Shown: positions 24,749 through 60,065, counted from the first letter of the stretch. The stretch is DNA of 64,000 nt from an uncultured Candidatus Saccharibacteria bacterium (GCA_964651115.1 CAZYXJ010000001.1:42273-106272), one strand, 5' to 3'. A program made the numbers and translations. Notes: generated by a model not told the origin, from the letters alone.

Positions 24749-26320
24749 GTGAGTCTCATAAAAATTTCTAGAGTTCTAAAAGAGTACGGTCAACACACCG
24801 TTTTAAAAGACGTTTCTTTTGCGGTGGAGCGTGGCGATCGCTTGGCGCTGGTTGGGCATAACGGCAGTGGCAAAAGCACCTTGCTTAAATTATTGGCCGG
24901 ACAAGAAACGGAGGACTTCGGCTCAATTATTCGCGCCCAAGATTTGCGCCTCTCTTATTTGCCGCAAGATACGAGTTTATTGAGCGATCAGTTAGTCGCT
25001 GAATATTTGGCCGAAGTGGGAGACCGTCCACCACATCAAGTGGAAACCATTTTGGCGGGCTTTGGCCTGGACGTCAAAGTTTTGGATCGTTCGCTAAAAG
25101 AGTTAAGTAGCGGCCAAAAGACCAAGATTGCCCTGGCGCGCGTCTTGCTAGAAGAAGCCGATTTACTTTTGCTGGATGAGCCAACTAATAATCTCGACTT
25201 GCCCGCTCTGTTGTGGTTAGAAGAATTTTTGCTTCAGTCTCGCGCGGCCTACGTCGTGATCTCTCATGATCGCCAATTTTTAGATCGAGTCGCTGAAAAA
25301 ATTATTGAAGTTGATTGGCAAGATCATAGTTTGATTATTAACAAAGGTTCTTATAGCGACTATCGGGAACAGGAAGCTCGTCGTCGCGCTCATTTGAAAA
25401 GTGAGTACGAGACGCGTCAGGCTGAGGTCGAGCGGATCGCGGAGCGAGCCGCCAAACTCAAAGCCTTAGCTGAGGCTGGGCCGCGCTGGACCAGTACCGA
25501 CAACGACAAGCACGTGAAATTTTATCGTTCTCAACGGGTGGCTCGGACGGCCCGGACCGCCAAGACTCTCGAACGGCGGGCCTGGCGTCTAGATACCCTG
25601 GATGCCCCAATCGAGCGAGGACTTTTAGAACTGCCCCTCGCGAGCCACAAGCGCGGTGGCGCCTTTGATTTAGAGCTGATCGCCGCTACTACCGGCTATG
25701 CCAGCGGCTTTGAGCTAGGGCCGTGTGACCTGGACATCCGTTACGGGCATCGGGTGGGCATTATTGGTCTAAATGGTTCGGGCAAATCTACACTTTTAAA
25801 GTTGATTAAGGGCGAGGTGCCAGTCCTGGGCGGAGAGCGGAAGGTGGGCTCGGGCGTTAAGATTGGTGATCTGACCCAAGAGCACGAGAGTCTGCCGCGC
25901 GAACAATCCCTAGTAGATTTTTTACTCAATAAGACCTCGGCGGACCGCTCGCAGGTTTATGAAATCCTCACTCGATTTAGCTTTAATGCTGATCGAGCCA
26001 CCTCGCCGATAGGTACTCTTAGTCCCGGAGAACGCGCCCGGCTTATTTTGGCCTTGTTTACCATGATGGAAATTAACACTTTAATTCTGGACGAGCCAAC
26101 CAATCATTTGGATTTGGAAGCGTTGGAGGCACTGGAGGAGGCACTGGAAACCTTTACGGGTACCTTGATTGTCGTCTCGCATGATCGCTACTTTTTGGAG
26201 CGTTCTCGCCTCGAGCGCCTCTACCAAGTGACGGCCGGGACACTCGCGCCGATTGGTGATTATCAGGCCTACTTAGCCGCCGCCGAGACGCAGGCGAAAA
26301 AATTAATTCGCTTATTGTAA
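24749..26320 (+). CDS. ABC-F family ATPase (two tandem ABC domains, no TMD)
   Basis: Two Walker A motifs (GHNGSGKST, GLNGSGKST), two LSGG/LSPG signatures and an inter-domain linker. Confidence 0.85.
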   Translation: MSLIKISRVLKEYGQHTVLKDVSFAVERGDRLALVGHNGSGKSTLLKLLAGQETEDFGSIIRAQDLRLSYLPQDTSLLSDQLVAEYLAEVGDRPPHQVETILAGFGLDVKVLDRSLKELSSGQKTKIALARVLLEEADLLLLDEPTNNLDLPALLWLEEFLLQSRAAYVVISHDRQFLDRVAEKIIEVDWQDHSLIINKGSYSDYREQEARRRAHLKSEYETRQAEVERIAERAAKLKALAEAGPRWTSTDNDKHVKFYRSQRVARTARTAKTLERRAWRLDTLDAPIERGLLELPLASHKRGGAFDLELIAATTGYASGFELGPCDLDIRYGHRVGIIGLNGSGKSTLLKLIKGEVPVLGGERKVGSGVKIGDLTQEHESLPREQSLVDFLLNKTSADRSQVYEILTRFSFNADRATSPIGTLSPGERARLILALFTMMEINTLILDEPTNHLDLEALEALEEALETFTGTLIVVSHDRYFLERSRLERLYQVTAGTLAPIGDYQAYLAAAETQAKKLIRLL

Positions 26321-26323
26321 ATT

Positions 26324-27619
26324 TTGATGTTTGATTTTACCGAAAAAATTTATTGGGCGATCAAAGACCGTCATTCCCATCGCCAATTTGGCGGGGCGCC
26401 ACGATTGTGCGTGGTGAATTTGCCCCGTCCCTCGCCTCGCTGGGGGATTGAGGTCTATTCGCGGCTTGGCTGGTTGGCCGAAACCGATCAAGAGTTTGGC
26501 GCTCTGCATCTCCTCGAACATTATCTGGCTGGTAGTGTGCGCGAGGTGGTGACTCATCCCGCCCACACCAATGGCCACGTGGGCATGGATCGCATGGGTT
26601 TTGAGGCTGACTTCCATCGCGACCAAGCAGCCAGCTTGGTCGAAACCTATTTGGACGGCCTCTTTCGCCCCAAGTGGCACCGCCAAGATCTCTTGGCCTA
26701 CGAGCGCGACTCCATTCTTAACGAGATGAACGTCAAGACCCATGACTTAGAATATGCCATCTTTCGCGCTGTAACCAAACAACGTTTTGCGCCCAACTCG
26801 CGTTACGGTCGGGCCTCAGTGGAATCACTCGACTCGACCTTGGCTCTATCGCTCGACGATATCGTCAATACCTACGAACGCTGGCGCGAAAGTCCGCTGG
26901 TAGTTTTTTTGTGGGGCCATCAATTGCCAGCGGCGTTGGTTGATCGCGTTCGCCGCTATCTCGAAGCTTGTGAGCTTAAGCCCTGGCAAAAAGACACCTG
27001 GCCGTCGGTGGATTATTCCCCGAGGCACATCGAATTGCGCCCCGATCCTAGTATCCGCGGGGTCTACATTAGTCTCTCTTTTCCGGCGGGCACCTGCCAA
27101 GATCCCGATCGAGACCTCTTAGCTCAGCGACGCCTGGGGCAATTTATTACCAGCAATCATCCCAAATCGGGCTTTCGACGGTTGCGCGAGCAGGGGATCT
27201 ACTTTTTTCGTTACGAGGCCGCGCGCTTTGGCAGTGCTGGCTTTTGGATTTTTCATAGTTATTGTACGCGCGAGCAGTTGCCAAAAACGCTCGGCGCGAT
27301 TGCTGAGGTTTGGCGGGAGATTAAGAAAAATTCGGTACCGGAAGGATATCTTTTGGATCTAAAAAAAGAGTCGCACTTTGCCATTGAGCGCGAGTGGTAT
27401 CAGAACGATAGTCGATACGACTGGATCGTCTCGGACGTTTTAGAAAATGAGCCGATCAAAACGATCGCTCAAGAAAAGGCGGTGGTCAACTCGGTCACGA
27501 GCGAGGTAATCGCCACGGTGGCCAATCGCACCCTCGACTCAACCAAGCTCAATCTCACGCTTACCGGCGACGTCCAAGGACTAGATCAGCAAGCGATAAC
27601 CACGGCCCTAGAATTTTAG
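26324..27619 (+). CDS. M16 (pitrilysin/insulinase-like) zinc peptidase
   Basis: Inverted zinc motif HxxEH (ALHLLEHYLAG) and a downstream Glu-rich region. Confidence 0.7.
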   Translation: MMFDFTEKIYWAIKDRHSHRQFGGAPRLCVVNLPRPSPRWGIEVYSRLGWLAETDQEFGALHLLEHYLAGSVREVVTHPAHTNGHVGMDRMGFEADFHRDQAASLVETYLDGLFRPKWHRQDLLAYERDSILNEMNVKTHDLEYAIFRAVTKQRFAPNSRYGRASVESLDSTLALSLDDIVNTYERWRESPLVVFLWGHQLPAALVDRVRRYLEACELKPWQKDTWPSVDYSPRHIELRPDPSIRGVYISLSFPAGTCQDPDRDLLAQRRLGQFITSNHPKSGFRRLREQGIYFFRYEAARFGSAGFWIFHSYCTREQLPKTLGAIAEVWREIKKNSVPEGYLLDLKKESHFAIEREWYQNDSRYDWIVSDVLENEPIKTIAQEKAVVNSVTSEVIATVANRTLDSTKLNLTLTGDVQGLDQQAITTALEF

Positions 27620-27634
27620 TTACCTAATCTGTTT

Positions 27635-28111
27635 ATGTTTTATAAAAAAATTCTTACGTTCGTAAAAGAGGACCAGGCCGATCGAGCAATGATTCGGAAA
27701 AAATTGCCACCAAGCAAGAAGATGTTGTTGTGGTTAAAAAGACGAGATGAACAGCGATTGAAAGATATTTGTAAGCTTGGTGCTCAAAATTATCATAAAT
27801 TCTCAAAGAAAACCCTTTTCAATGTTGCTTTAATTATGACTCATGCTTTGCCACTAGAGCATCAGTTAGTTGCTGGAGTTATTGCCGATAGGAGCTATTC
27901 TTTAGGGTTTAAGCGGGCCGATAAACTAAGAAAAATAACAGCGGATAGAATATTGGTTTCAAAATATCAAAAACAAAAATATGGCACTCAGCAGCAATAT
28001 CTGAATGGTAAGTTTATTCCTTATCCGGTAAGTCATAAGCTGAAAGATCCGTTAATTGAATTAACCCCGGAAGAAAAAGAAGTTATTGTTGGAAAAGCGT
28101 TTTCTGTTTGA
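27635..28111 (+). CDS. hypothetical protein (low GC)
   Basis: 158 aa basic protein with no recognised family. This is the first gene of the low-GC block. Confidence 0.4.
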   Translation: MFYKKILTFVKEDQADRAMIRKKLPPSKKMLLWLKRRDEQRLKDICKLGAQNYHKFSKKTLFNVALIMTHALPLEHQLVAGVIADRSYSLGFKRADKLRKITADRILVSKYQKQKYGTQQQYLNGKFIPYPVSHKLKDPLIELTPEEKEVIVGKAFSV

Positions 28112-28113
28112 GG

Positions 28114-29442
28114 CTAGAGATACCCCCACTCGCGGAGTTTGTCCATGCCGCTTTTGATAAAACGATTGCCGATGTCGTTGCGGTAAAACATTTTAGGGAT
28201 GTACACTTTATTGGCCAAGCCATAAACTTTGTTTTGGGCCTGCTCGACTGTCTGACCCATACCCGTGATGTAAAGCACATAACCGCGATGATCGGAGATG
28301 TAATACTGGTTTTCTCCGGCGCGGAGAGCCATCTCTTCGAAGTGGAAGTGCCGCCACTCATCCTTTTTTAACTTGTCGTCAAAGTAGATATTCAAACCAT
28401 AGGGCGAGTTTTGGGGCAACTTCTTGTTGTGGGGGAAAGGGGGGACGGTGATCAAAATGACGATACCATAACCACGACGCCATTTGAGTTTATATGGTTC
28501 GCCTTTGGCCACGGCGTAAAGAAATTCCCCCCACGGCGACTGATGGATCTCGTCATGCAAATAAGTAATCGGTGAGCCAAAGCGAGGAGTCGCCTCAAGG
28601 GGGTAGGCACCCGTTTCGTTAACGATGCAATTGATATCGATATCGCCCCGGAAGCCAATCTCTTGTAAGTAGGGTTTGAGTTTAGCTAGGGTCTCTTGGA
28701 ATAATTTATTTTCTGCCTCGTTATCGTCATACCAAGCCAGGGTGCCCATCTCGCTAGTTGGGGGGCCAAGATCTCCCGGGAAGAACTTTTTGTGTTCTAC
28801 GTTCATCTCGATTGGACCAACCCAATCATTGCCGTTAAAGTAGCGGCCGACGCCAATTTCGACACCGTCGATACGCTCTTGGAGAGTAATCGCCCGCGCT
28901 TGGCTCTTGAGATTACGATTGTAGTTTTCTAAGACACTGGCCACATCACGACTATCGGCAAAATGAGAGACGTAGTTGAGACTTTTGGAAGCGTTGCCGT
29001 TCTGCTTGATTACCCACGCGCCACGATTATCTTTTAGGAATTGAATGGCGTCAAGAATATCTTTAAAGGTCTTGAGGGGGACCGTTTTGATTCCATATTT
29101 TGCAAAAATGGCCTGACCGTATTGACGATCAGACTCTAATTTATCCCCCAATTCACAACCCCCAAAAACTGTATAACCCTCTTTGCGCAAGTCGTCTTGG
29201 ACTTTTCCCGAGCCAATGTCGTCAAAAATAATTAGTCCATTCTTGCCGACCCAAAAGAGTTCCTGGCGCCAGTCTTGAGTCTTTTCGACCAAGCCAGAGA
29301 AGTTGGTTTGGGCCTCGGGGGGCAGATAGAGCCGGACACTGTGGCCCTCTTGCTTTAGACGCACCGCTAAGTGCGGGGCGATCATATTTTCGGACGATAC
29401 AAACAGGATATTCCTGGCAGTCATATGTTGTATTTCTAACAC
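28114..29442 (-). CDS. phosphoribosylamine--glycine ligase (PurD/GARS)-like ATP-grasp enzyme
   Basis: Collinear similarity to PurD: AWVIKQNGNASKS resembles IVIKADGLAAGKG, EATPRFGSP resembles EFNCRFGDPE, and the C-terminus GMGQTVEQAQNKVYGL...RNDIGNRFI resembles the PurD C-domain (ALGHTVAEAQKRAY...RKDIGWRAI). Confidence 0.65.
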   Translation of the reverse strand: MLEIQHMTARNILFVSSENMIAPHLAVRLKQEGHSVRLYLPPEAQTNFSGLVEKTQDWRQELFWVGKNGLIIFDDIGSGKVQDDLRKEGYTVFGGCELGDKLESDRQYGQAIFAKYGIKTVPLKTFKDILDAIQFLKDNRGAWVIKQNGNASKSLNYVSHFADSRDVASVLENYNRNLKSQARAITLQERIDGVEIGVGRYFNGNDWVGPIEMNVEHKKFFPGDLGPPTSEMGTLAWYDDNEAENKLFQETLAKLKPYLQEIGFRGDIDINCIVNETGAYPLEATPRFGSPITYLHDEIHQSPWGEFLYAVAKGEPYKLKWRRGYGIVILITVPPFPHNKKLPQNSPYGLNIYFDDKLKKDEWRHFHFEEMALRAGENQYYISDHRGYVLYITGMGQTVEQAQNKVYGLANKVYIPKMFYRNDIGNRFIKSGMDKLREWGYL

Positions 29443-29477
29443 ATAAACAGTATCACGTAAAGCCCCAGACTGTCAAA

Positions 29478-30398
29478 TTAGCCGTAGAAAGCTAGGCCTA
29501 TGCCGCCAAGAACAAGTAATAGGATGGCAATAAATTTTTTTACCAAATTTTTTCGATCTAAAGATTCATTAAAGTGGCGAGGAAGAAATTTTGTTAGCAA
29601 GGCGCCGATAACAAGAACGAATAGTGGCTGAAGAGAGTTAACAACATAGACAAGTGCCACCGGGGCTAGAAGTACAGCATAATTAAAAAGTAAATCTGCG
29701 CCGATCATAGAGCCTTCGGTGGCTGATCCAAATTTAATCATTTTGATTCCTGCGCTGCGATAGAGGGCGAAAAAATCTCGACGGTACGAACCAATAAAAA
29801 TTAAGAGCAGTAAACCGAGAAGCATGATGCCGGAGTATTCCCAAAATTGTGATTGCCAATAACCCGCATCCAGAGCAATTTTCTTAAAGATCACGCCAGA
29901 CAGAGCCGAAAAAAAAGAGGCTGTGCCCATAAGCAACAAGAGTTTACCCTTTAACTTAAAGGTGCCATTTTCAGTAGCCAAAGAAAGCAAAAAAGCTCCT
30001 AAAATAATTACCGCACACAGAATCATTTGAATCGCAGAAAGTTGTTCTCCTAGAACGACATAACCCAAAACATAGGAAAAAACTGGGATTAATTGATAAA
30101 GCGGAACAACCAATGAGGCCTCATACCTATGGAGAGCATTAAGATATAGCGCCAGGCTACTCATGCTGATAACCCCATTAATAACCAGCGTGATTTTAAA
30201 AGTCGAAGAAAGTAAAAAAACTCCCTGATCAAGAAAGAAAGAGATGGGAACCATGATTCCCGCAAAAAGTGCTGAAAAAATGACGATCCCGCCAATACCA
30301 CCATCTTCTTTTACGAAATGACTAAGAACGAACTTGTCGATGAAATTGGCCGCGGTATACAGCAAGGGCGCCCCCAGGGCCACTAGAAACCAAGACAT
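29478..30398 (-). CDS. EamA-like (DMT superfamily) transporter
   Basis: 306 aa with about 10 TM helices in two repeated halves. Low GC. Confidence 0.7.
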   Translation of the reverse strand: MSWFLVALGAPLLYTAANFIDKFVLSHFVKEDGGIGGIVIFSALFAGIMVPISFFLDQGVFLLSSTFKITLVINGVISMSSLALYLNALHRYEASLVVPLYQLIPVFSYVLGYVVLGEQLSAIQMILCAVIILGAFLLSLATENGTFKLKGKLLLLMGTASFFSALSGVIFKKIALDAGYWQSQFWEYSGIMLLGLLLLIFIGSYRRDFFALYRSAGIKMIKFGSATEGSMIGADLLFNYAVLLAPVALVYVVNSLQPLFVLVIGALLTKFLPRHFNESLDRKNLVKKFIAILLLVLGGIGLAFYG

Positions 30399-30589
30399 AA
30401 GGTGTAGTATAATTTAAACAATAAATCTAATCCACTAGCATTTATGACCCTTGCGTCCAAAATTTTAGTTGCCGTTCTTTTATATGCAATATTTTTTTCA
30501 ATTTTTGTTACCTTCCACCAGGGGGTAATTTTAAAAAAATATGATCTAATTAGCACTGAAGAGAATTAAACTTTAGCGACCAATGAACT

Positions 30590-31117
30590 CTAAATAACTT
30601 GTCTATTAATTTTTTCTTGTAAATACCACTGAAAATACCCTTTGTATCTTTTTTGCAATTCTTTGTTTTTCCAATCTTGGTCGGTGATGATATTTCTACA
30701 GTTCTTAGAGGCACACAAACAATTTAGAGAATACGAAACTTGTTCGCTCTCTGATCCAAGAGCCATTGCATAATCAAAAGTTACAGCTTCCCCAACTAAA
30801 ATTTCTCTCATGGCCACCAAAATAATCTGTCCATGAAAGCCAGCATTTGGGTCACAGGAATGATTGAAAAAACAAGCTGGTTCGATTTCTGATTCTTTTT
30901 TTATCCCCAAAACAAAATCATCACCAATCTGTAGGCCATAATCAGAAAGATTGGCTGGGCCTTCTTTTTCTTCTTTTATTGTCATCACGTATCCTCCAAA
31001 TATTGCTAAAACTTCGCCCTTCATTATTTTTTTTGCGGCAAATACGCCCCTCCCTGCCCCAGAAGTTGTTTCTTGCAACTTTAGTTTTTCGTTAACCCAA
31101 GAGAAAGAATTGTGCAT
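30590..31117 (-). CDS. SET-domain protein (putative protein-lysine methyltransferase)
   Basis: GRGVFAAKKI (GxG), FFNHSCDPN (NHSCxPN), EAVTFDY (ELxFDY) and post-SET CLCASKNC. Low GC, about 38%. Confidence 0.8.
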   Translation of the reverse strand: MHNSFSWVNEKLKLQETTSGAGRGVFAAKKIMKGEVLAIFGGYVMTIKEEKEGPANLSDYGLQIGDDFVLGIKKESEIEPACFFNHSCDPNAGFHGQIILVAMREILVGEAVTFDYAMALGSESEQVSYSLNCLCASKNCRNIITDQDWKNKELQKRYKGYFQWYLQEKINRQVI

Positions 31118-31160
31118 TTAAATTTGTTTATAAGTAAAAACTCACGCTATAATCATAAGT

Positions 31161-32825
31161 ATGCTAAATAACCTCATTACTTGTCCAGATTCTGTGCCAA
31201 ACTTCCTGGGAATTGTTGATACCCAACTAGCCCCTCCATTGCTATTTTATTCATATCTACCAATTATTGCCATTTGCTTATTTATGGGGGGATACGTTCT
31301 TGCGGCAAGCAAGTTTTCCCTAATTTCTAAAGCTTTCTTGGCCATCAGCATATTTTTTTCATTATGGTCAGCAAACGCACTTTTCCAGTGGATCGGGGTT
31401 CACGCCGACATAGTTCACTTTTCTTGGCAAATAATCATATTGTTTGAAGCCCTAATGTTTATTTCCGTGTTTTATTTTTCTTACGTTTTTTTACACAACA
31501 AGACACCATCGATATGGTGGCAAGTTGCACTGTCGGTTATTTTGTTCCCAATTATCTTACTTTTACCGTCCCGTTTGAATATCACCGCTTTTGATTTAAC
31601 TAATTGCGCCGGACTAGTTGGCTCTTTATGGCGATACGAATATGTAATGGAATTTTTCATTGCAATTTTGATTTTGTATTTTACCTTTAAGAAATGGCAA
31701 ATTAAAAAGAACATGAAAAGTAAAGAGGTTCTTTTGGGAGTTTCGTCCACTTTTTTTCTGGTCTTATTTTCGATTACAAACATAATTGGCGACGCCACTG
31801 GTTACTATCAAGTAACACTGGCGGGATCTATAGGTTTTGCAGTTTTCTTGGGAGCAGTTGTTTTCCTCATCGTCCGCTATAAGGCCTTCAATATTAAGAT
31901 CATTGGAACACAGGCCCTGGTTGTAACTTTGTGGGTTTTGACTGGATCATTGCTTCTGGTGGCCAAATCGGAAGTCACCCGAATCATTGTGGCATTAACA
32001 GAGATCGTCTCAATTATCTTCGGTCTCATTTTGATTAAAAGTGTTAAGCGAGAAGTCGCGCAGCGGGAAAAAATCGAAAAATTGGCCAGTGCCCTGGCGG
32101 AGACAAACGACGAGCTAAACGTGGCTAACGAAAAACTTAAAGAACTAGACAAACAGAAAACCGAATTCGTTTCGGTGGCGTCGCATCAGTTGCGTGCTCC
32201 GACTACGGCCATCAAAGGTTACTCCTCAATGCTTCTCGAAGGTTCTTATGGTCCGCTGGAAGAGAAGGCCAAGCAAGCTGTCGACGTCATTTTCCAATCA
32301 GCCCAAAAACTTAATTTCGTGATCGAAGATTTTCTCAACATTACCCGCATTGAGTTGGGCAAAATGAAGTATGAGATTTCTGAAGTTGATTTAAAGAAAA
32401 TGGTTGATCAGGTATTTAAGGAGCTCGACCCCGTGGCCAAGCGCAAGGGTCTCGAATTTAGCTTTAGTGCTGGACGAGGCTCGTTTAAGGTGATGGCCGA
32501 TCCCAGCAAGCTTTCCCAAGTCATTATGAATATTGTGGATAACTCAATTAAATATACTCCCAGTGGTTCAATTAAGGCTCGCCTTGAGGTCAAGGGAGGC
32601 AAACGTCTCTTTAGTATTACCGACACCGGTGTCGGCATGAGCGAAGAGACTCGGGGGCGCCTATTCCAAAAGTTTACTCGTGCCTACAACGCCAGCGCCT
32701 CTAACGGCACCGGTACTGGCTTAGGACTCTTCGTCGCCAAACAAATGATCGAGGCCCAAGGCGGACGTCTGTGGGTTGAGTCTGCCGGCGAAGGGAAGGG
32801 GAGCACCTTCTTTGTGGAGTTGTAG
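31161..32825 (+). CDS. sensor histidine kinase with N-terminal multi-TM sensor domain (orphan)
   Basis: About 7-8 TM helices, then HisKA H-box FVSVASHQLRAPTTAIKGY and HATPase_c G-boxes (DTGVGM, GTGLGLFVAK). No response regulator is adjacent. A TATAAT lies about 8 nt before the ATG. Confidence 0.85.
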   Translation: MLNNLITCPDSVPNFLGIVDTQLAPPLLFYSYLPIIAICLFMGGYVLAASKFSLISKAFLAISIFFSLWSANALFQWIGVHADIVHFSWQIIILFEALMFISVFYFSYVFLHNKTPSIWWQVALSVILFPIILLLPSRLNITAFDLTNCAGLVGSLWRYEYVMEFFIAILILYFTFKKWQIKKNMKSKEVLLGVSSTFFLVLFSITNIIGDATGYYQVTLAGSIGFAVFLGAVVFLIVRYKAFNIKIIGTQALVVTLWVLTGSLLLVAKSEVTRIIVALTEIVSIIFGLILIKSVKREVAQREKIEKLASALAETNDELNVANEKLKELDKQKTEFVSVASHQLRAPTTAIKGYSSMLLEGSYGPLEEKAKQAVDVIFQSAQKLNFVIEDFLNITRIELGKMKYEISEVDLKKMVDQVFKELDPVAKRKGLEFSFSAGRGSFKVMADPSKLSQVIMNIVDNSIKYTPSGSIKARLEVKGGKRLFSITDTGVGMSEETRGRLFQKFTRAYNASASNGTGTGLGLFVAKQMIEAQGGRLWVESAGEGKGSTFFVEL

Positions 32826-32921
32826 CTTAAGCGAGCTATAGTATACTTCTAAGTAGACCCAACCATAAGTTCTCGTGCGAGAGCGGGGTGGGACGATCTT
32901 TACCAAAATAGGAGATGGGCC

Positions 32922-34037
32922 ATGTGGTTAACCGGTTGTTTGGTTGCCGCCTCAGCTCTGGCGGTTGGCCAGACCGAGTACGAAACTTTTTACCCCTTAA
33001 GCCAACAGCGACCGACTCTGCAGCACGTCGCGCGTCCCGTCGGCCAACAAACAAGAGGACGATACCTTTTTTCTGATCCCGAACGACTTACCGCCGGGCA
33101 AGTTGCGGGGATCCAATTCTCCACTCTTATTTATTTTTCCCCGGAGGGACTGCCCAAATCACCCGTCCGCGTGCGCCTGTGGCTTTACGAAGAACCGGTC
33201 GCCCCGAGCATCGCTCACGGGCAGATCCAAGTCGCGCGCGTCACCAGTTCTTGGGAAGCCAAAAAAGTTACTGGCCGTTTAATGGGCCAAGCCAAATCTT
33301 CACGTCGTCACGCCTGGAAGTTCATTGATCTGACCGAGACTTATTTGGCGTGGCGCTCGGGGCTGTGGACCGAGCAGAATTATGGTCTAGCCATTTGCCC
33401 GACGGCTAAGTCAACCGACCCAGGCCAGATGAACTCTTTTGCGAGCTGGGAACATCCGGTAGAATCGGTTAGGCCTTTTCTGGCAATCCAAACGGCCGAT
33501 ACTGGCTGGTACCATTTTCCTTTGCGGGGAGGTTATTTGCCCGAGATGATTACTGGTTACAACTTTGGCGAACCGTGGTTGCCAGAGAGCCAGCGAACCA
33601 TCTCGCCAGCCAATTTTCCTCTCTTGCATACAGGCATTGATTTGCGAGCAGAAGTCGGCGATCCGGTCTGTGCGATTGCCTCAGGGATGGTGAGGCTCTC
33701 AACGGCTGATGAGAAGTGGGGTGGATACATCGTGGTAGAGCATCATCACGGCGACACTCCTTACACCGCCACTTACACTCACGTCCTACCTGGTGGACTG
33801 TGGGTTAGTCAGCTCTTTTGGGTTCAGGCCGGAGACGTTCTGGGGACTATTGCGCCCGGTAACGCCAATTTTTCGCCCCACCTGCACTTCCAGATCAGAT
33901 TGGGCGAGTATGACCCGACTCGATCATTGCTCGGCAGGCTACCAGAAGTTTCCGCCACCACCACCGCCTCACCAACCGTGCCCGAGCCAGCCTTTCCCGA
34001 AAATTTTTATGACCCACGGGTGATGCCTTGGGAATAA
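32922..34037 (+). CDS. secreted M23 (LytM-type) metallopeptidase
   Basis: Signal peptide, HTGIDLRAEVGDPV (HxxxD), and HHHGDTPYTATYTHV...SPHLHFQI (HxH). Confidence 0.8.
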   Translation: MWLTGCLVAASALAVGQTEYETFYPLSQQRPTLQHVARPVGQQTRGRYLFSDPERLTAGQVAGIQFSTLIYFSPEGLPKSPVRVRLWLYEEPVAPSIAHGQIQVARVTSSWEAKKVTGRLMGQAKSSRRHAWKFIDLTETYLAWRSGLWTEQNYGLAICPTAKSTDPGQMNSFASWEHPVESVRPFLAIQTADTGWYHFPLRGGYLPEMITGYNFGEPWLPESQRTISPANFPLLHTGIDLRAEVGDPVCAIASGMVRLSTADEKWGGYIVVEHHHGDTPYTATYTHVLPGGLWVSQLFWVQAGDVLGTIAPGNANFSPHLHFQIRLGEYDPTRSLLGRLPEVSATTTASPTVPEPAFPENFYDPRVMPWE

Positions 34038-34044
34038 AAATATA

Positions 34045-34080
34045 AGCGCCAGTACCACCTTAAGTGGTACTGGCGCTCTT
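34045..34080. terminator. bidirectional hairpin terminator between convergent genes
   Basis: Perfect 14 bp stem AGCGCCAGTACCAC/GTGGTACTGGCGCT with a 5 nt loop. U-rich flank on the minus strand, weaker on the plus strand. Confidence 0.55.
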
Positions 34081-34086
34081 CGCTGC

Positions 34087-34350
34087 TCACAGATCATACT
34101 CTCCTCCTTCGCCCGCGCTTAAGCGGGGGCAATTTTCCATGACGTCCTTCGCTTCCGCTCGGGGTCTCACTGTCCACGCTGGCGGTAGGGGATAAGGCCG
34201 CTCCGCTTTGGGGACAGCGACGACGGCCTGCGGCGGCTCCACCTTGGGTGGAGGAGCTTCAGCGGGCGGTGCAACCTCCGGCGCCGAGGAGTTTTCGCAA
34301 CTCGGAGCCAGCACCAACACCAGGAGTACCAGCCAGATCAGACTCTTCAT
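34087..34350 (-). CDS. small secreted Pro/Ala-rich protein
   Basis: 87 aa with signal peptide MKSLIWLVLLVLVLAPSC, possibly a lipobox. It overlaps the upstream gene by 92 nt in another frame. Confidence 0.4.
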   Translation of the reverse strand: MKSLIWLVLLVLVLAPSCENSSAPEVAPPAEAPPPKVEPPQAVVAVPKAERPYPLPPAWTVRPRAEAKDVMENCPRLSAGEGGEYDL

Positions 34351-34714
34351 CGATCACCTCCTTAGAAAGAGTGGGGTTCCAATACAACGCCAGGATCGCT
34401 TCGCCACACGGCACGCAAGTTTGATAACAACCTACCTGGTCATTGTAGTAGTAATAGGCCTTGGCACAGCCCGTGTCGCAACCACTGCGCACGGCATCCA
34501 TTTCTTCCCCATAGCTATAGCCATCGGCATAATCTTGCCTGGCGGCGGAGATGATCGAAGCGATGTAGTTATCGCTATAACCCGCGGGTCGACATAGGCG
34601 ATAAGCCCGGTCGACGGGCGACTCCACGACGGGGGCCGGGGCACAACCCTGACCGGATAGGAAGGGGAAGATCAACCACAAGGCGACGATCCCCACAAAC
34701 AGTTTTCGACTCAC
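34259..34714 (-). CDS. small Cys/Tyr-rich secreted (lipo)protein
   Basis: 151 aa with signal peptide MSRKLFVGIVALWLIFPFLSGQGC, eight Cys residues and a YYYY motif. Confidence 0.45.
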   Translation of the reverse strand: MSRKLFVGIVALWLIFPFLSGQGCAPAPVVESPVDRAYRLCRPAGYSDNYIASIISAARQDYADGYSYGEEMDAVRSGCDTGCAKAYYYYNDQVGCYQTCVPCGEAILALYWNPTLSKEVIDEESDLAGTPGVGAGSELRKLLGAGGCTAR

Positions 34715-34841
34715 GAGATTTCCTCCTAAAAATAGAGAGGGGAAAAGGGACCAGTCAACATTTAGAGAGCAACGAGCTCCACCTTTAGACTAGCACACTC
34801 TAGTTTTACCCGCACTATTTTTTTGCTATGATTGTCCACAT

Positions 34842-35792
34842 ATGGTCAATCAAGAAAAAGTCCTCCTTTCCGGTGTTAAGCCGACAGGCCGCCCCCACTT
34901 GGGCAATTATTTTGGCGCCTTAAAACAGTTTGTTAACCTGCAAAATGAGTATCGCTGTTTTATTATGCTGGCCGATTATCACGCCCTAACGACTGAGAAC
35001 GATCCGGCCGCCTTGCGCCAAAACACCCTCGATCTAGCCATCGATTATTTAGCCATTGGCCTGGATCCAGAGCGCGTGACTCTCTTTAAGCAATCAGCCG
35101 TGCCAGCGCACACCGAGCTCGCTTGGATCTTTAACTGTCTCACCACCATGCCTTACTTGATGCGCGCGCACGCCTTCAAGGACGCGGAAGCCAAAAACAA
35201 AGAGATTAGTGTGGGTACTTTTGACTACCCAATGCTCATGGCCGCCGACATTCTACTTTATGAGGCTGATGTCGTGCCGGTGGGACAGGATCAGAAACAG
35301 CATATCGAGATCGCTCGCGACACGGCCGAAAAATTTAATCGACTGTTTGGCGAAACCTTTAAACTTCCCGAGCCCCTGATTTTGCCCGAAGTAAAAACGG
35401 TGCCCGGTATTGATGGCCAAAAAATGAGTAAAAGCTACGGCAACACCATCCCGCTCTTTGCTTCTGATGAGGAAATCACCAAACAGGTAATGGCAATCGT
35501 CACTGATTCCAGCGGCGAGGTGCCACAAAATGTTTACGAGATCCACAAACTTTTCCGCAGCCCCGAGGACTTGGTCGCGATTTACGAGTCCAAAAAGGGG
35601 AGGTATAAAGAACTTAAAGAGGCTTTAATTACTGATATTTGCCAGTTCGTGGCGCCGCTACGCGAGCGGCGAGCGGCCATTGCCTCGGACCCGTCAAGAG
35701 TGGAAGAAATTTTAACGCTCGGCGCGGAGACGGCCCGGACCCGGGCCCAGGCCACTCTTGAGCGCGCTCGCTCCGCCGTCGGAATTTCTTAA
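34842..35792 (+). CDS. trpS: tryptophanyl-tRNA synthetase
   Basis: HIGH-region (GVKPTGRPHLGNYFGA), KMSKS motif and TrpRS-specific motif (GQDQKQH). Confidence 0.93.
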   Translation: MVNQEKVLLSGVKPTGRPHLGNYFGALKQFVNLQNEYRCFIMLADYHALTTENDPAALRQNTLDLAIDYLAIGLDPERVTLFKQSAVPAHTELAWIFNCLTTMPYLMRAHAFKDAEAKNKEISVGTFDYPMLMAADILLYEADVVPVGQDQKQHIEIARDTAEKFNRLFGETFKLPEPLILPEVKTVPGIDGQKMSKSYGNTIPLFASDEEITKQVMAIVTDSSGEVPQNVYEIHKLFRSPEDLVAIYESKKGRYKELKEALITDICQFVAPLRERRAAIASDPSRVEEILTLGAETARTRAQATLERARSAVGIS

Positions 35793-37625
35793 ATGAGAGA
35801 ACGAATTCGTAAAATCAGAAGTTCGTCTTGGGCCTTGCTTAAAAATTGTTGGCGTTCGTTGGGTTACGCCTATCAATTTTCGCCCCGAGCCATCATCCTC
35901 ATGCTCGTTCTGGGCTCCCTGATTCCAGCCCTGACCTTCGCTCAAAATAAATATTTTGGGCGCGTGATTGACGGACTGGTTTCTTCCGTCGCGGCTCGCG
36001 AGCTTAATGCGCTGTGGCAACTGGTAGGCATCTATGCCCTCCTACTGATGATTAGCCCGATCTTGCGGGCGATTCGCCTCGCGGTGGAGAAACGCTACTA
36101 TCTCAAGCTCCAAGAGGGCATGGAAATTTTGTTGCTCCGGCGCCGAAGCGAGACCGATATCGCCACGCTGGAAGACAAAAATTACCAAGACCTCCTTCAG
36201 CGAGCGCTCCAGCGCGGCCACTGGCCCATCAGTTCGATTGTCGACCACCTACTCATCGCCTGGCAGAGCCTGATGGCCGTAGCGATCGGCTCGCTCGTCG
36301 CCGTCTGGTTTGACTGGCGGATCTTTGTGATTGTGATTACCGCTTCACTTCCCAAATTTGTTGCCGACATCAGGCACGGCCAAGACGTGTGGAGCATTCA
36401 CGCTCACGCCAGCCCTGATCAGCGACGCTTTGGCGACTTGCGTTTCCACATTGGCAATCGCATCTCTCTGATTGAGACCAAGCTGTATCAAAGCAGTAAT
36501 TGGATCATCAACTGGATGGGAAAAATTTTGGGCAAGTTTACGGACGACCAAATCTCGGCCGAACAGCGTCGCCTAAAATGGGTCGTGATGGCAGAGGTGC
36601 TTTCCACCGCCGGCTTCGTGCTCGCCATTCTCTTGATTGTTCGTGAGGTAATGGCGGGCAACATCCAGATCGGCGCGATGACCTTCGTGGTTGCTTCGCT
36701 GTCTCAGCTCGATAGTTCCATTTCTGGTCTATTGATTAGCATTGCCAAGCAGTACGAAGCTAACCAATATGCTAACGATATCTATCGGGTAATGGATTGG
36801 CCGCCCGCGATTGCGCACGCCAAGAAACCCAAAAAACTTGAGCTTGATGGGCCACCCGAAATCGTTTTCGAAAACGTCTCCTTTCATTACCCCCACGATC
36901 CCAAACTGATTCTTGACGGTCTTAACCTCACAATCAAAGCCGGAGAAAAATTGGGGATCGTCGGCATCAACGGTGCCGGTAAAACCACGCTCGTTAAGCT
37001 CTTGTGTCGGATCTATGATCCAACCAGTGGGCGCATTCTCGTCAATGGTCTCGACCTGCGCCAAGTAGAACTGGAAGAATGGCATTCGGTTTTAGCCGTT
37101 TTGTTCCAGGACTACACGTCCTTCGATTTCCAGACCGACCAAGCGATTGCCATGGGGCGAGTCGAGCAGGAAATTGTTCCTGAGCAAGTCCGAGCCGCGG
37201 CCGAAACTAGTGATGCCGATTCCTTTATTCGTCATTGGAAAAACCAATACGAAGAAATGTTGGGTGTGGAATTCGGCGGTCAGGAGCTCTCACGCGGCCA
37301 GCGCCAGAGATTGGCCATTGCGCGAGCGGCTTATCGTCAGGGACGCGTCCTCGTCCTCGACGAACCAACGGCCTCCGTCGACGCCGATTCGGAGATGAAA
37401 ATCTTTGAACGGTTAGAGTCCTGGAATGGGGCGACAATGATCCTCATTTCTCATCGCTTCAACACTCTGCGCCGCGCCAGTCGGATCATGTTGATCGAGG
37501 GCGGCAAGGTGGCGGAGATCGGCTCGCACGAAGAGCTGATGGCCCTCGGTGGACGCTATGCCGAAATGTTTACGCGGCAAGTGGAGAGCTACGTCGAGAC
37601 CCCGACCGAAAGCACGGTCAGTTAA
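35793..37625 (+). CDS. ABC exporter, fused permease-ATPase (MsbA/type I exporter-like)
   Basis: Six-TM domain plus NBD with Walker A GINGAGKTT, signature LSRGQRQR and Walker B LVLDEPT. Confidence 0.85.
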   Translation: MRERIRKIRSSSWALLKNCWRSLGYAYQFSPRAIILMLVLGSLIPALTFAQNKYFGRVIDGLVSSVAARELNALWQLVGIYALLLMISPILRAIRLAVEKRYYLKLQEGMEILLLRRRSETDIATLEDKNYQDLLQRALQRGHWPISSIVDHLLIAWQSLMAVAIGSLVAVWFDWRIFVIVITASLPKFVADIRHGQDVWSIHAHASPDQRRFGDLRFHIGNRISLIETKLYQSSNWIINWMGKILGKFTDDQISAEQRRLKWVVMAEVLSTAGFVLAILLIVREVMAGNIQIGAMTFVVASLSQLDSSISGLLISIAKQYEANQYANDIYRVMDWPPAIAHAKKPKKLELDGPPEIVFENVSFHYPHDPKLILDGLNLTIKAGEKLGIVGINGAGKTTLVKLLCRIYDPTSGRILVNGLDLRQVELEEWHSVLAVLFQDYTSFDFQTDQAIAMGRVEQEIVPEQVRAAAETSDADSFIRHWKNQYEEMLGVEFGGQELSRGQRQRLAIARAAYRQGRVLVLDEPTASVDADSEMKIFERLESWNGATMILISHRFNTLRRASRIMLIEGGKVAEIGSHEELMALGGRYAEMFTRQVESYVETPTESTVS

Positions 37626-37635
37626 ATCAAAACTC

Positions 37636-37660
37636 GGGACCCCTTAAGGGGTCCCTTTTT
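37636..37660 (+). terminator. rho-independent terminator
   Basis: GGGACCCC-TTAA-GGGGTCCC followed by TTTTT, directly after the ABC exporter stop codon. Confidence 0.8.
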
Positions 37661-37728
37661 CTTATTCACAATTATAAAAATATGTGGTATAAGAAAAAGG
37701 GACATTCAAACTGAAAAGGAGGTCAGTG

Positions 37729-38310
37729 ATGCAACGGATTCTTTTGGCGGCACTAGCCCTGGCTAGTGCCGGATGCTTTTCACCTCGAGGTACCGTCACC
37801 GTCGGAGCTAGTGTCAGGCAAATTAGGGGCAATTACAACGGCTTCCGCAGCCGCGCCACCATTCCCGTCGGCACTGTCCGCTTGGCTCAACCCATGGGAA
37901 AGAAGCTGGAAATCTGGCACGAGTGGCAGGGCAATCAGGGCCGAGTACCCGCCGATCATCTCGTGGCCCGAGGAGAGGGTGAGGGTTGGCTGTGGGCATC
38001 GGCCACTGGGATCGCATTGTATCCGGCCGAAACACGCCTCTTGGGCTTAACAATGGGCGGAGAGTTTTTTGAGGCGCGATACCGGATGACGGGACGGCTC
38101 GGACCCCTTCGTTCGCAAGAGCGAGATCATTTCTCGGGCGTAGGATTGGTCCTCGGCTTAAGAAGCGAGCTTCCTCTCGATCGGAATAAGCGCTTTGGTC
38201 TAGTCATTGAGGGCGGTTACCGCTTTACCGACACCTGGACCACCAAAGCCCGGATCGACGGCGATGGCTGGTATGGCACCATTGGCCTGGCTATCCAGTT
38301 GGGCCCTTAA
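37729..38310 (+). CDS. lipoprotein with beta-rich C-terminal domain
   Basis: Signal peptide plus lipobox LASAGC with alternating beta-like segments ending ...WYGTIGLAIQLGP. A TTCACA-N17-TATAAG promoter lies at about 37665-37693 and the RBS AAAGGAGGT is upstream. Confidence 0.55.
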   Translation: MQRILLAALALASAGCFSPRGTVTVGASVRQIRGNYNGFRSRATIPVGTVRLAQPMGKKLEIWHEWQGNQGRVPADHLVARGEGEGWLWASATGIALYPAETRLLGLTMGGEFFEARYRMTGRLGPLRSQERDHFSGVGLVLGLRSELPLDRNKRFGLVIEGGYRFTDTWTTKARIDGDGWYGTIGLAIQLGP

Positions 38311-38318
38311 GCATTTCA

Positions 38319-38366
38319 CCCCCCCCCCCTGATCAACACCGAGTGTTGATCAGGGGTTTTCTTTTG
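38319..38366 (+). terminator. terminator hairpin formed by dispersed palindromic element (copy 1) with C11 tract
   Basis: C11 (38319-38329), then TGATCAACAC-CGA-GTGTTGATCA, then GGGG and TTTTCTTTTG. Together these give a 14 bp stem ending in a T-run. An inverted copy occurs at about 59951-59995. Confidence 0.7.
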
Positions 38367-38405
38367 AACGTTTTTCTTTTGAGAAAATATGTTAAACTCA
38401 ACTTG

Positions 38406-39800
38406 ATGAAAAATAGAACTAATATTAAAGACCTTAGTCAAAAAGTGGGGGAGGAGGTGGTAATTGCCGGCTGGGTGGATGTCCGCCGCGACCAGGGCAA
38501 AATGATCTTCTTCGACTTCCGCGATAAAACCGGTAAGGTGCAAGGCGTGATTCTTCCGGGCGCCAAAGAGGCGCACGCCGTGGGCGAAAAGCTCCGCCCC
38601 GAGTGGGTGGTCGAAGTAACGGGTAAGGTCAACGCTCGACCCGAGAAAAACATCCAAGCCGACAAACTAAACGGCGGGATTGAACTAGAAATTTTGGGAC
38701 TTAAAATTTTGAACGAAGCTACCACGCCGCCCATCCCACTCGGCGATGACGGGTACGAAATTGGTGAGGAGAACCGACTCAAGTATCGCTACTTAGACTT
38801 ACGCCGCGAGCGACTGCAAAAAAATCTTCGCCTACGCCACGAAGTAATCCGCCTGATCCGCAATCATTTAAGTGACCAAGGATTTGCGGAGGTCGAAACA
38901 CCGATTTTAACCAAATCAACGCCCGAAGGTGCTCGGGACTATGTTGTCCCTTCGCGGGTTTATCCCGGCAAATTCTACGCCCTGCCCCAGTCGCCCCAGC
39001 AATACAAACAATTGCTCATGGCCGCCGGTCTAGAGAACTATTTCCAAATTGCTCGCTGTTTCCGCGACGAGGACACTCGCGGTGATCGTCAGCCAGAATT
39101 TACTCAGTTAGATATGGAGTTGTCTTTTGTGGATCGCGAAGAGGTGATGGAACTTAACGAAGAGCTTTTGATTAAGATTGTCCAGACCCTCACGCCCGAG
39201 AAAAAAATTCAAACCATTCCCTTCCCGCGTCTAACCTACGCCGAAGCGATGGAAAAGTATGGCACTGACCGACCTGACTTGCGCGAAAATAAGGATGATC
39301 CAAACCTACTCGCTTTTTGCTGGGTAATCGATTTCCCCTTCTTTGAAAAAACCGAGGAAGGTGGCTGGACTTTTACTCACAACCCCTTCTCTCGGGCCAC
39401 CGCCGAATGGGAGAGCGCCCTCATGGAGAAGCGCGACCTCGAAAAGATTTTAACGACTCAGTATGACGTCGCCCTCAATGGCTTCGAAATTGGCGGCGGC
39501 TCGATTCGTAATCATCGGCCCGAGGCGCTCAAAAAAGTTTTTGAAATAATGGGCTTTAGCGAAGACAGAATTGTTAAAAACTTCGGCCACATGCTAGAAG
39601 CCTTGGGATCGGGGGCGCCACCACATGGCGGCATTGCCTGGGGTCTCGACCGCTTTATCTCTCTCTTGGCTGGCGAACCAAATATTCGAGAAGTAATTGC
39701 GTTCCCCAAAACCGGCGAGGGTCAAGACTTGATGATGAACGCCCCTTCAGACATCGAAGCTAAACAATTAAATGAACTCCGAATCAAAGTTTCAAGTTAA
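38406..39800 (+). CDS. aspS: aspartyl-tRNA synthetase (short, no GAD insertion)
   Basis: OB-fold N-domain and class II motifs. TKSTPEGARDYVVPSRV...FYALPQSPQQYKQLLM and QIARCFRDEDTRGDRQPEFTQLD are diagnostic for AspRS. Start set at the internal ATG at 38406. Confidence 0.92.
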   Translation: MKNRTNIKDLSQKVGEEVVIAGWVDVRRDQGKMIFFDFRDKTGKVQGVILPGAKEAHAVGEKLRPEWVVEVTGKVNARPEKNIQADKLNGGIELEILGLKILNEATTPPIPLGDDGYEIGEENRLKYRYLDLRRERLQKNLRLRHEVIRLIRNHLSDQGFAEVETPILTKSTPEGARDYVVPSRVYPGKFYALPQSPQQYKQLLMAAGLENYFQIARCFRDEDTRGDRQPEFTQLDMELSFVDREEVMELNEELLIKIVQTLTPEKKIQTIPFPRLTYAEAMEKYGTDRPDLRENKDDPNLLAFCWVIDFPFFEKTEEGGWTFTHNPFSRATAEWESALMEKRDLEKILTTQYDVALNGFEIGGGSIRNHRPEALKKVFEIMGFSEDRIVKNFGHMLEALGSGAPPHGGIAWGLDRFISLLAGEPNIREVIAFPKTGEGQDLMMNAPSDIEAKQLNELRIKVSS

Positions 39801-47768: not shown

Positions 47769-48001
47769 AGTTTGAATCAAAAACTTAAATTTGCTTGAAT
47801 AAGCATTCATGGGAGAAAAGATCCTAATGTACGGCAAAGCTTTATTGATCCTGGTGGCATGGCTCCTATTCCTCGGGGGGATTAAGTTTTTGGAATGGTT
47901 AGAGTTGAAGGAATAAACTAATTTTTTAAAATACAATGTCGCAAAATATATGTTGTGCGACGTTATGTTTGTTTTAATCCCCAGCGCCGACCCTCCCTTC
48001 C

Positions 48002-59323: not shown

Positions 59324-59398
59324 GGCCCTATCGTCTAATGGCTAGGACATCACCCTCTCACGGTGGTAATCGGGGTTCGACTCCCCGTAGGGTCACCA
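59324..59398 (+). tRNA. tRNA-Glu (anticodon CUC), CCA encoded
   Basis: Manual cloverleaf: acceptor GGCCCTA/TAGGGTC, D-arm GTCT..GGAC, anticodon stem TCACC/GGTGG with loop CTCTCAC, T-arm CGGGG-TTCGACT-CCCCG, discriminator A and CCA. Confidence 0.7.
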
Positions 59399-59438
59399 AG
59401 TCGTGCTGAGTCTGTATGCACGAGAAGCGTCGAAAAAT

Positions 59439-59945
59439 ATGGAACAAATTCTCAAGTTAAATCCAAGCAATATCACCGATGAAGCGTCTGCCCGCCTAAA
59501 AACAAGGTTCGCTTCTAGGGGTGTTGTTTTTGACGGGGATAAAAATGTAGCTCTTCTGCCAGTAACGGCTCATAACTATTACAAACTTCCTGGCGGCGTG
59601 ATAGAAGATGGTGAGGATAAGGTGGAAGCTTTTCGCCGAGAATGTTTGGAGGAAATCGGTACGGATGTGGATGTAATCCAGGAACTCGGTTCAGTGGTGG
59701 AATATCGGGCAGAATTTTCTCTGGTTCAAACATCCTACTGCTATGTCGGCAAAATAAAAGGTGAAAAACATAAAGCTACATTTACTCAACACGAGCTAGA
59801 TAGTGGTTTTCGAGATGCAATTTGGCTACCACTGGAGAAAGCTATTGAGCTCATGGAAAGTCAGGCCGATAATCATGAGGGCAAATATGTTGTTGAGAGA
59901 GATACTTTCTTACTGAAAAAAGTTGGGGCCTTAAAAACTATCTAG
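59439..59945 (+). CDS. NUDIX hydrolase
   Basis: Nudix box GGVIEDGEDKVEAFRRECLEEIG (Gx5Ex7REUxEExGU). Start probably the ATG at 59439 (MEQILK). The ORF track opens at the GTG at 59403. Confidence 0.72.
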   Translation: MEQILKLNPSNITDEASARLKTRFASRGVVFDGDKNVALLPVTAHNYYKLPGGVIEDGEDKVEAFRRECLEEIGTDVDVIQELGSVVEYRAEFSLVQTSYCYVGKIKGEKHKATFTQHELDSGFRDAIWLPLEKAIELMESQADNHEGKYVVERDTFLLKKVGALKTI

Positions 59946-59950
59946 CCAAA

Positions 59951-59995
59951 AACCCCCTGATCAACACTCGGTGTTGATCAGGGGGGGGGGGTGAC
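59951..59995 (-). repeat. dispersed palindromic element copy 2 (inverted) with G11 tract
   Basis: CCCCCTGATCAACAC-TCG-GTGTTGATCAGGGGG followed by G-run 59981-59991. It is the reverse complement of copy 1 (38319-38366), including the 11-nt homopolymer. Confidence 0.65.
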
Positions 59996-60065
59996 AGGGG
60001 TTCTTAAAAAAAATTAGGGGGCGCTCGAGAAGCATAATTAATGGCTTTTCTGCTATCATACTATT

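Follow-up and report, generated by a model that had tools for sequence, protein, structure and literature searches.

A low-GC block in a Candidatus Saccharibacteria genome is probably one form of a conserved Patescibacteria gene neighbourhood

Does a sharp drop in GC content over a run of functionally mixed genes mark a foreign island or a resident part of the genome? This question is raised by positions 27635-32900 of a 64,000-nucleotide stretch of DNA from an uncultured Candidatus Saccharibacteria bacterium (GCA_964651115.1, CAZYXJ010000001.1:42273-106272). The whole stretch, 64 kb of one genome, is referred to as the window. It is 51% GC and has a high share of housekeeping genes (for ribosomal proteins, RpoA, GrpE-DnaK-DnaJ, a large number of aminoacyl-tRNA synthetases, and functions of the cell wall and of division), and the block in question is its lowest-GC 5.3 kb (42.2%). 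Since all 964 equal-length non-overlapping windows had a GC content of at least 0.488 (48.8%), against 0.422 for the block, the dip is not due to chance. The block contains genes for a hypothetical protein of 158 amino acids (aa), named hyp158 here, a ligase resembling the purine enzyme PurD, an EamA permease, a SET-domain protein and a histidine kinase, as well as a 41-codon open reading frame (ORF). A first-pass annotation had interpreted the five genes as a horizontally acquired mix with unrelated functions, the ligase and the kinase being orphans. Its description of the locus proved accurate: the low-GC stretch is real, the five genes lie where they had been placed and carry the domains assigned to them (Pfam), the hyp158/PurD-like pair is convergent and the SET/kinase pair divergent, and the M16 and M23 flanks are higher in GC (Table 1).

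Our comparisons make it likely that the block is a version of a Patescibacteria-wide conserved neighbourhood around the ligase gene, and not one foreign island. A scan with the ligase alignment provided 80 metagenome loci (29-58% GC), and neighbours were counted over 85 ligase loci. Within 4 kb of the ligase gene, counted only in the 38 loci in which both flanks extend for 4 kb or more, the kinase was found in 32/38 and EamA in 26/38. Within 10 kb, tblastn against the 80 metagenome loci detected the kinase in 53, EamA in 48 and SET in 8. Over the 85 loci, the kinase was present in 62 and EamA in 52, in 31 of them directly adjacent to the ligase gene. Thus, the two supposed orphans are each a conserved neighbour of the other. 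The stable core of the neighbourhood comprises the PurD-fold ligase, the multi-pass kinase, EamA and a small single-pass membrane protein whose gene usually diverges from that of the ligase. Optional additions are S-adenosylmethionine (SAM)-dependent methyltransferases adjacent to the kinase and decarboxylases abutting the ligase, the latter absent from the window.

The nearest relatives (73-76% ligase identity and 79% DnaK identity, including L085 and L089) share the backbone GrpE-DnaK-DnaJ ... EamA, PurD-like ... kinase ... M23, TrpRS, ABC exporter, and a relative with 66% ligase identity has tandem EamA, AdoMet_dc, a small ORF, PurD-like and the kinase. The order PurD-like, EamA, SET, kinase recurs in a different orientation in L113, L133 and L141 (56-58% ligase identity) and is also found in the sister genome (GCA_964444555.1). 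M23 occupies the same place in L085, L089, L092 and the sister genome, within a backbone of kinase, M23 and TrpRS. When used as a contig-search query, the ABC-F protein retrieved only relatives of at most 35% identity, which were of no use for synteny.

Two contigs of the sister genome cover the region, and both end inside the PurD-like gene. To the left of the block, gene order is the same as in the window and the proteins are 94-100% identical. To the right of a strain-variable spot, PurD-like, EamA, the 41-codon ORF, SET, kinase, M23 and TrpRS follow as in the window. An island would be expected to be absent from the same site in relatives, whereas the PurD-like, EamA, SET and kinase genes and the small ORF are all present in the sister genome. 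All block genes are under purifying selection, with ratios of non-synonymous to synonymous divergence (dN/dS) of 0.01-0.10. The view of a horizontally acquired mix is therefore contradicted by conserved synteny, which covers the small ORF and all five genes except hyp158, and best matches, proposed as a guide to donor lineages, gave PurD-like and SET homologues that are mostly from Patescibacteria. The ABC exporter (35793-37625, membrane and ATPase domains), which separates TrpRS from a 194-aa gene in the window, is absent from the sister genome, in which TrpRS directly precedes the 194-aa gene.

The nature of the ligase is central to any functional interpretation. Its likely start is the ATG at 29424, which gives a protein of 436 aa. 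Pfam matched GARS_A (PF01071) and GARS_C (PF02843), and no match to GARS_N (PF02844) was found at E<=0.01; the GARS_N domain of PurD holds the phosphoribosylamine-binding region. The score against the PurD equivalog TIGR00877 was 108.9 bits, compared with a cut-off of 288. More than 2000 homologues were found, mostly in Patescibacteria at 53-76% identity. The best 120 are 56-76% identical, with Patescibacteria, Parcubacteria, Paceibacteria and Peribacteria as named sources, and some sources label the homologues phosphoribosylamine-glycine ligase. All of the top 15 Foldseek matches of its AlphaFold2 (AF2) model (predicted local distance difference test score, pLDDT, 87) in the PDB were PurD structures (TM-score 0.66-0.79, 18-20% identity), the match spanning the full length and biotin carboxylases ranking next; PDB sequence matches were PurD structures only. 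Approximately 90 positions are invariant in the family (27 sequences), and dN/dS against the sister genome is about 0.01.

Compared with PurD (TIGR00877; PDB 2xcl, 3lp8 and 1gso), the ligase has the same full-length four-domain ATP-grasp fold with GARS_A and GARS_C, and its catalytic-strand Glu and Arg align with the IEFNARFGDPE region, whereas the aligned Asn of PurD is Thr in the ligase family. In addition to its low identity and its TIGR00877 score far under the cut-off, the ligase differs from PurD in the sequence of the N-terminal domain: alignment of the family profile with PurD structures starts at residue 74, and a profile of residues 1-105 (14 family members) failed to match any PDB chain of PurD at E<=10. 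Genomic context differs as well, consisting of kinase, permease, small membrane protein and decarboxylases and not of purine genes; among the 21 annotated families of the 30 commonest neighbours in the 85 loci, none was a purine enzyme. Judged by sequence criteria and the predicted structure, the protein appears to be a PurD-fold ligase that is not PurD, and it is probably not a purine enzyme.

Further neighbours of the ligase gene provided a hint to its substrate. After the kinase and EamA, the 85 loci contained AdoMet_dc-family genes (26) and a long, Cys-rich form of the small membrane protein (25), followed by a pyridoxal phosphate (PLP)-dependent ornithine/arginine/diaminopimelate decarboxylase (9), an aldo-keto reductase (8), a GNAT acetyltransferase (6) and an arginase/agmatinase-family protein (5). 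A 175-aa multi-pass membrane protein, which has no Pfam match and is absent from the window, was encoded beside the ligase in 17 loci. All PLP decarboxylase genes (9/9) and 17/26 AdoMet_dc-family genes abut the ligase gene directly. It has been shown experimentally that AdoMet_dc homologues of Candidate Phyla Radiation (CPR) genomes are ornithine or arginine decarboxylases (PMC10407285). Since two unrelated decarboxylase families occur beside the ligase, we infer that it acts on a decarboxylation-derived amine. The polyamine clusters with SpeD-derived decarboxylases of CPR and DPANN genomes (PMC10407285) are similar in that AdoMet_dc-family genes abut the ligase in 17 loci and PLP decarboxylase and agmatinase-family genes lie beside it, but, unlike these clusters, the window has no decarboxylase. 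Neither that report nor our literature searches on PurD, ATP-grasp or SET proteins in CPR/Patescibacteria yielded an account of the cluster or the ligase.

The 41-codon ORF, noted in the first-pass annotation as hydrophobic, does exist and encodes a 41-aa protein with a single hydrophobic helix at residues 7-25. Searched alone with phmmer, it matched small ORFs in other loci (E 3.8e-7, 2.3e-6 and 1.7e-4), and an iterated profile of the family collected 70 ORFs from 63 loci, the reversed-sequence control giving 0. Thirty-two of the family ORFs are located within 300 bp upstream of the ligase gene and divergent from it; in the window, EamA separates the ORF from the ligase gene. The family is characterized by a Lys-rich N-terminus, one membrane helix, the motif TFYKTV(I/V)xxD(F/Y)x(V/I)(V/I) and usually an acidic tail, and long forms (80-157 aa) have an extra Cys-rich C-terminal domain. 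An intact copy with 5 aa changes is encoded in the sister genome (8 non-synonymous and 7 synonymous substitutions, too sparse to decide alone). Judging from this conservation across loci, the ORF is a real gene of a conserved small membrane protein family. We also considered the acidic tail as a substrate of the ligase and set this idea aside, because the N-in topology predicted by the positive-inside rule would place the tail outside the cell.

The kinase contains HisKA (PF00512) and HATPase_c (PF02518) domains and about eight hydrophobic segments in residues 1-293, and HisKA_7TM (PF16927) was recorded in its relatives. Its identity to relatives tracks that of the ligase, as vertical descent predicts, and dN/dS against the sister genome is 0.043. 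A receiver-domain gene was found within 4 kb of the ligase in 1/38 loci and, by tblastn, none in the window. MgrB and SafA are small membrane proteins that modulate the sensor kinase PhoQ. As a lead only, these systems are similar in having a single-pass protein of about 40-50 aa encoded beside a membrane sensor kinase; on the other hand, there is no sequence kinship, and the small protein studied here is linked most tightly to the ATP-grasp gene.

With regard to function, the ligase would be an active carboxylate-amine ligase that no longer acts on phosphoribosylamine. Its most likely substrate would be a diamine/polyamine-type amine supplied by neighbouring decarboxylases or by import, an assignment that we regard as a serious candidate, although at somewhat less than an even chance. 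EamA might carry the substrate or product across the membrane, and the kinase might sense a related envelope or metabolite state, perhaps with the small membrane protein as its modulator, while SET would methylate a lysine of some protein target. More tentatively still, we suggest that ligase, small membrane protein, kinase and EamA could constitute an undescribed functional module, widespread in Parcubacteria-type CPR, in which a former purine enzyme converts an amine of the putrescine, agmatine or cadaverine type, either imported or supplied by a decarboxylase, into an amide conjugate that might modify the envelope or a carrier under kinase control, and an adjacent slot recruits methyltransferases such as SET.

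The SET protein is a stand-alone protein of 175 aa (PF00856, E 2.3e-13). Its closest solved relative is the SET and post-SET region of MLL1/KMT2A (E 5e-11), and the alignment covers the GRG, NHSCxPN, TFDY and CxCxxxxC motifs. On this basis it is a predicted protein lysine methyltransferase with a post-SET cysteine motif. Similar to eukaryote-like SET methyltransferases (MLL1/KMT2A), it has the GRG, NHSCxPN and DY motifs and the post-SET Cys cluster; unlike the MLL1 type, it stands alone, in a conserved spot beside a membrane histidine kinase in Patescibacteria. SET proteins outside eukaryotes include Chlamydia NUE in bacteria and Methanosarcina Go1-SET in archaea. Homologues of the protein formed 120 clusters, mostly from Patescibacteria and a few from DPANN archaea, with a best identity of 60%. 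The SET and kinase genes diverge from a 43-bp spacer, and SET adjoins the kinase in L091, L092, L113, L120, L133, L141 and L148, and it does so in most loci with SET; the two closest SET homologues both adjoin a kinase, and one of them is also near the ligase. In the nearest relatives, the slot between ligase and kinase is filled by class-I methyltransferases of low GC content at third codon positions (GC3) instead of SET. Between PurD-like or SET and the kinase of L085, L089 and L092 we found PrmA/TRM5-like, guanidinoacetate-N-methyltransferase-like and class-I methyltransferases, all with low GC3. The kinase-adjacent slot appears to collect SAM-dependent methyltransferases repeatedly.

The EamA protein matches PF00892 in two stretches and has about 9-10 hydrophobic segments; no relative with a solved structure was found. 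Its gene lies upstream of PurD-like on the same strand. GC3 of this gene is 0.397 here compared with 0.446 in the sister genome, and dN/dS is 0.061.

How can the low GC content be reconciled with a conserved neighbourhood? GC3 was compared with 60 window genes (mean 0.553, standard deviation 0.086), and the results are shown in Table 1 together with the coordinates. The deepest dips (0.29-0.39) were located at 27.55-28.1 kb and 30.25-31.9 kb, and the 'low-GC block' is in fact two patches (hyp158, and EamA-spacer-SET) split by the compositionally native PurD-like gene. In the kinase, GC3 is 0.39-0.44 in the membrane half and 0.52-0.57 in the catalytic half. A mean membrane-half difference of -0.085 was observed in 56 kinase homologues, with an equal or larger drop in 14/56, and the AT-richness of the membrane half is thus a family-wide property. 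A recombination break within the kinase gene was considered as the source of the split and ruled out, as the low-GC3 membrane half is family-typical. The claim of atypical composition, for which codon usage had been proposed as a check, therefore stands for hyp158 and SET, which are stably AT-rich, and for EamA, which is moderately so, and falls for PurD-like, which is uniform with the genome, and for the kinase, which is within the genome range. In the SET gene, GC3 is 0.312 in the window and the sister genome alike at a synonymous divergence (dS) of about 1 (dN/dS 0.050). Under simple two-state amelioration toward 0.55, a foreign signature would be expected to be mostly gone at such divergence, and the low GC3 of SET thus looks maintained rather than residual.

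Table 1. Genes and features of the low-GC block and its surroundings, with base composition
Feature	Coordinates	Strand	Basis	GC	GC3	GC3 z-score	Remark
ABC-F ATPase	24749-26320		Pfam				Upstream of M16; not a peptidase
M16_C	26324-27619	+	Pfam	0.535			Flank
hyp158 (158 aa)	27635-28111	+	Without Pfam match	0.354	0.308	-2.8	Strong outlier
PurD-like ligase (GARS_A + GARS_C)	28114-29442	-	Pfam	0.481	0.564	+0.1	Genome-typical
EamA	29478-30398	-	Pfam	0.414	0.397	-1.8	Moderate outlier
41-codon ORF	30444-30569	+	ORF call
SET	30590-31117	-	Pfam	0.366	0.312	-2.8	Strong outlier
Kinase (HisKA + HATPase_c)	31161-32825	+	Pfam	0.433	0.479	-0.85	Inside genome range
M23 peptidase	32922-34037	+	PF01551	0.553			Right flank
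Divergence tract	27620-39800	.					Block, M23, TrpRS, ABC exporter and AspRS

Divergence from the sister genome is uneven across the window. dS was 0.23-0.52 in the left flank (L13, S9, GrpE, DnaK, DnaJ, ABC-F and M16), 0.73-2.8 from PurD-like through AspRS and 0.31-0.44 in the right flank (ScpA, ScpB, MraY and FtsW), so that synonymous divergence in the tract is 2-7 times that of either flank; far to the left, a partial alignment of RpoA gave a dS of 0.79. At about 39.75 kb, where AspRS adjoins ScpA, nucleotide identity rises sharply from 0.60-0.86 to 0.89-0.96, and the left edge of the tract is the strain-variable spot between M16 and PurD-like. This pattern suggests that about 12 kb (27.6-39.8 kb) was swapped by homologous recombination with a related lineage of the same gene order, the alternative being that the sister bin mixes strains. 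Outgroups are equidistant from both sister genomes, and the recipient of the tract is not indicated. Since the tract holds housekeeping genes of normal GC (TrpRS and AspRS), it does not account for the drop in GC.

The remaining gene, hyp158, has no Pfam or NCBIfam match. A word-indexed search returned two other clusters only, and a profile search returned 41 distant representatives. DUF6624 (PF20329) was matched by 14/39 distant relatives (best E 4.5e-6) and not by hyp158 itself, which appears to be a small helical protein distantly related to this family. Its AF2 model is weak (pLDDT 70), and the structure search found no fold match. The dN/dS of 0.10 refers to a homologue of 82% identity, located on a short ENA contig (L175), and not to the sister genome. 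In the latter, hyp158 is cut to a 94-aa remnant in the gap between M16 and PurD-like, amid five other ORFs (8347-11580 of contig L173) of 57, 209, 191 (with a run of unknown residues), 216 and 215 aa, several of them low in GC3; the 216-aa ORF encodes a Polbeta-type nucleotidyltransferase. Thus, within the block, hyp158 alone shows the behaviour of strain-variable accessory DNA. The label of accessory DNA, applied earlier to the whole block, is appropriate for this gene and, weakly and by composition, for EamA and SET, and it does not suit the other genes with their conserved synteny.

Several other explanations were weighed. That the five genes, unrelated in function, came as a horizontally acquired island from foreign donors of lower GC is unlikely, even though the block is the lowest-GC stretch of the window, hyp158, SET and EamA are GC3 outliers, EamA and SET are also outliers against the same genes elsewhere, hyp158 is strain-variable, the distribution of SET is patchy and extends to DPANN archaea, and divergence from the sister genome is in excess along the tract. 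Against it, the small ORF and all of the genes but hyp158 keep their synteny in relatives over ligase identities of 53-99%, the GC3 of the ligase is native, the identity of the kinase follows that of the ligase, and the divergent tract includes the normal-GC TrpRS and AspRS. Purifying selection is strong, and a SET GC3 of 0.31 in both sisters would be unlike a fading import. Traces of mobility were missing as well: no integrase or transposase domain occurred among the Pfam matches of the window, no tRNA flanks the block (the sole window tRNA is at 59324), and no long flanking repeats were detected, short repeats being at chance level only. An 18-nt inverted repeat at 27629 and 29433, which flanks hyp158 and PurD-like, was likewise judged to be at chance level. 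The PADLOC scan indicated no defence-system membership, with one generic ATPase-domain match (the kinase), and the Rfam scan found no RNA family in the block. The local GC dip and the one strain-variable gene are reminiscent of a classical genomic island, from which the block differs in lacking integrase, tRNA and flanking repeats and in that most of its genes keep their place throughout the phylum. As an account of the whole block, this explanation is largely refuted.

A positional effect offers a different account of the dip. The GC skew of the window flips sign at 26000-33000 with gene orientation unchanged, the plus-strand GC3 skew going from about +0.15 (5-20 kb) to -0.3 to -0.4 (40-56 kb), and this zone may be a replication-terminus zone. 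If the block lay at the terminus, its AT-richness and gene flux would be of a kind common there, and cumulative GC skew does peak at about 28-29.5 kb, the same-strand GC3 skew shifts across 26-33 kb regardless of gene orientation, and the strain-variable spot and the edge of the recombination tract are located here. However, the dip is gene-specific, with a normal GC3 in the mid-block ligase and immediate recovery at M23, the skew shift is gradual, a dif scan found no site in the block (the best window match being at 47936) and the loci of relatives are without a clear skew switch; we regard this account as quite improbable. We give very little credence to a genuine, divergent glycinamide ribonucleotide synthetase surrounded by unrelated genes. 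The GARS_A and GARS_C domains, the PDB sequence matches to PurD only, the full-length PurD fold and the name used by some sources agree with it, but it is opposed by the TIGR00877 score (109 bits against 288), the lack of GARS_N and of PurD similarity in the N-terminal 105 residues, the 18-20% identity to real PurDs, the absence of purine enzymes from the annotated neighbour families, and the fixed association with kinase, permease, small membrane protein and decarboxylases. CPR genomes are tiny and are generally regarded as lacking de novo nucleotide synthesis. Also counted against a genuine PurD is that CPR bacteria are generally reported to be without de novo purine synthesis.

It should be noted that several observations weigh against the preferred reading of the block as a version of a conserved neighbourhood. 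The genes around the ligase differ in order and orientation among loci, which indicates a neighbourhood and not a fixed operon. The window contains no decarboxylase gene, so that the link to amines is indirect here and the amine would have to come from synthesis elsewhere or from import. The composition of EamA and SET is foreign to the genome, and relative to their PurD-like neighbour, EamA is more AT-rich than in any of 51 other loci and SET more than in any of 9 other loci. Compared with the nearest relatives, EamA shows only about 41% identity and the ligase 76%, a difference compatible with replacement; over all locus pairs, EamA and ligase identities are uncoupled, EamA saturating near 40% for almost all pairs. 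Finally, the function of every component has been deduced from context.

Some additional features of the window were observed. A second low-GC patch (59324-60608) begins right after tRNA-Glu(CTC) and includes a NUDIX gene (59403-59945, GC3 0.365) and a P-loop kinase-like gene (60066-60608) with the lowest GC3 of the window (0.276); if a small insertion is sought, this patch is a more promising candidate than the block. The palindrome ATGTCGCAAAATATATGTTGTGCGACGT at 47936-47963 matches dif consensus sequences at 21/28 positions. It is flanked by convergent genes, in a local dip of GC, and is probably a bidirectional terminator. Directly 3' of the M23 gene is a hairpin (34044-34078) with a 16-bp stem containing 9 GC pairs. 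Two overlapping ORFs on opposite strands occupy 34208-34714. The minus-strand ORF (34259-34714, 151 aa, with a hydrophobic start and Cys-rich) is 78% identical to a called gene of the sister genome and is probably the real gene of the two, and the plus-strand ORF of 129 aa shows only 64% identity.

The findings are relevant both to the scanning of genomes and to the biology of CPR bacteria. A sharp GC dip combined with mixed functions resembled an island and turned out to be mostly conserved core, which calls for caution in similar scans. Moreover, the dip persists through full synonymous turnover, while simple amelioration predicts otherwise. The ligase is kept in CPR under stronger constraint than most housekeeping genes (dN/dS about 0.01, identity 53-76%), and one of its partners, the small membrane protein, had previously gone unnoticed. 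With an enzyme that appears not to be PurD, fixed partners and two kinds of abutting decarboxylases, the neighbourhood would provide a tractable target for learning what CPR bacteria make or sense.

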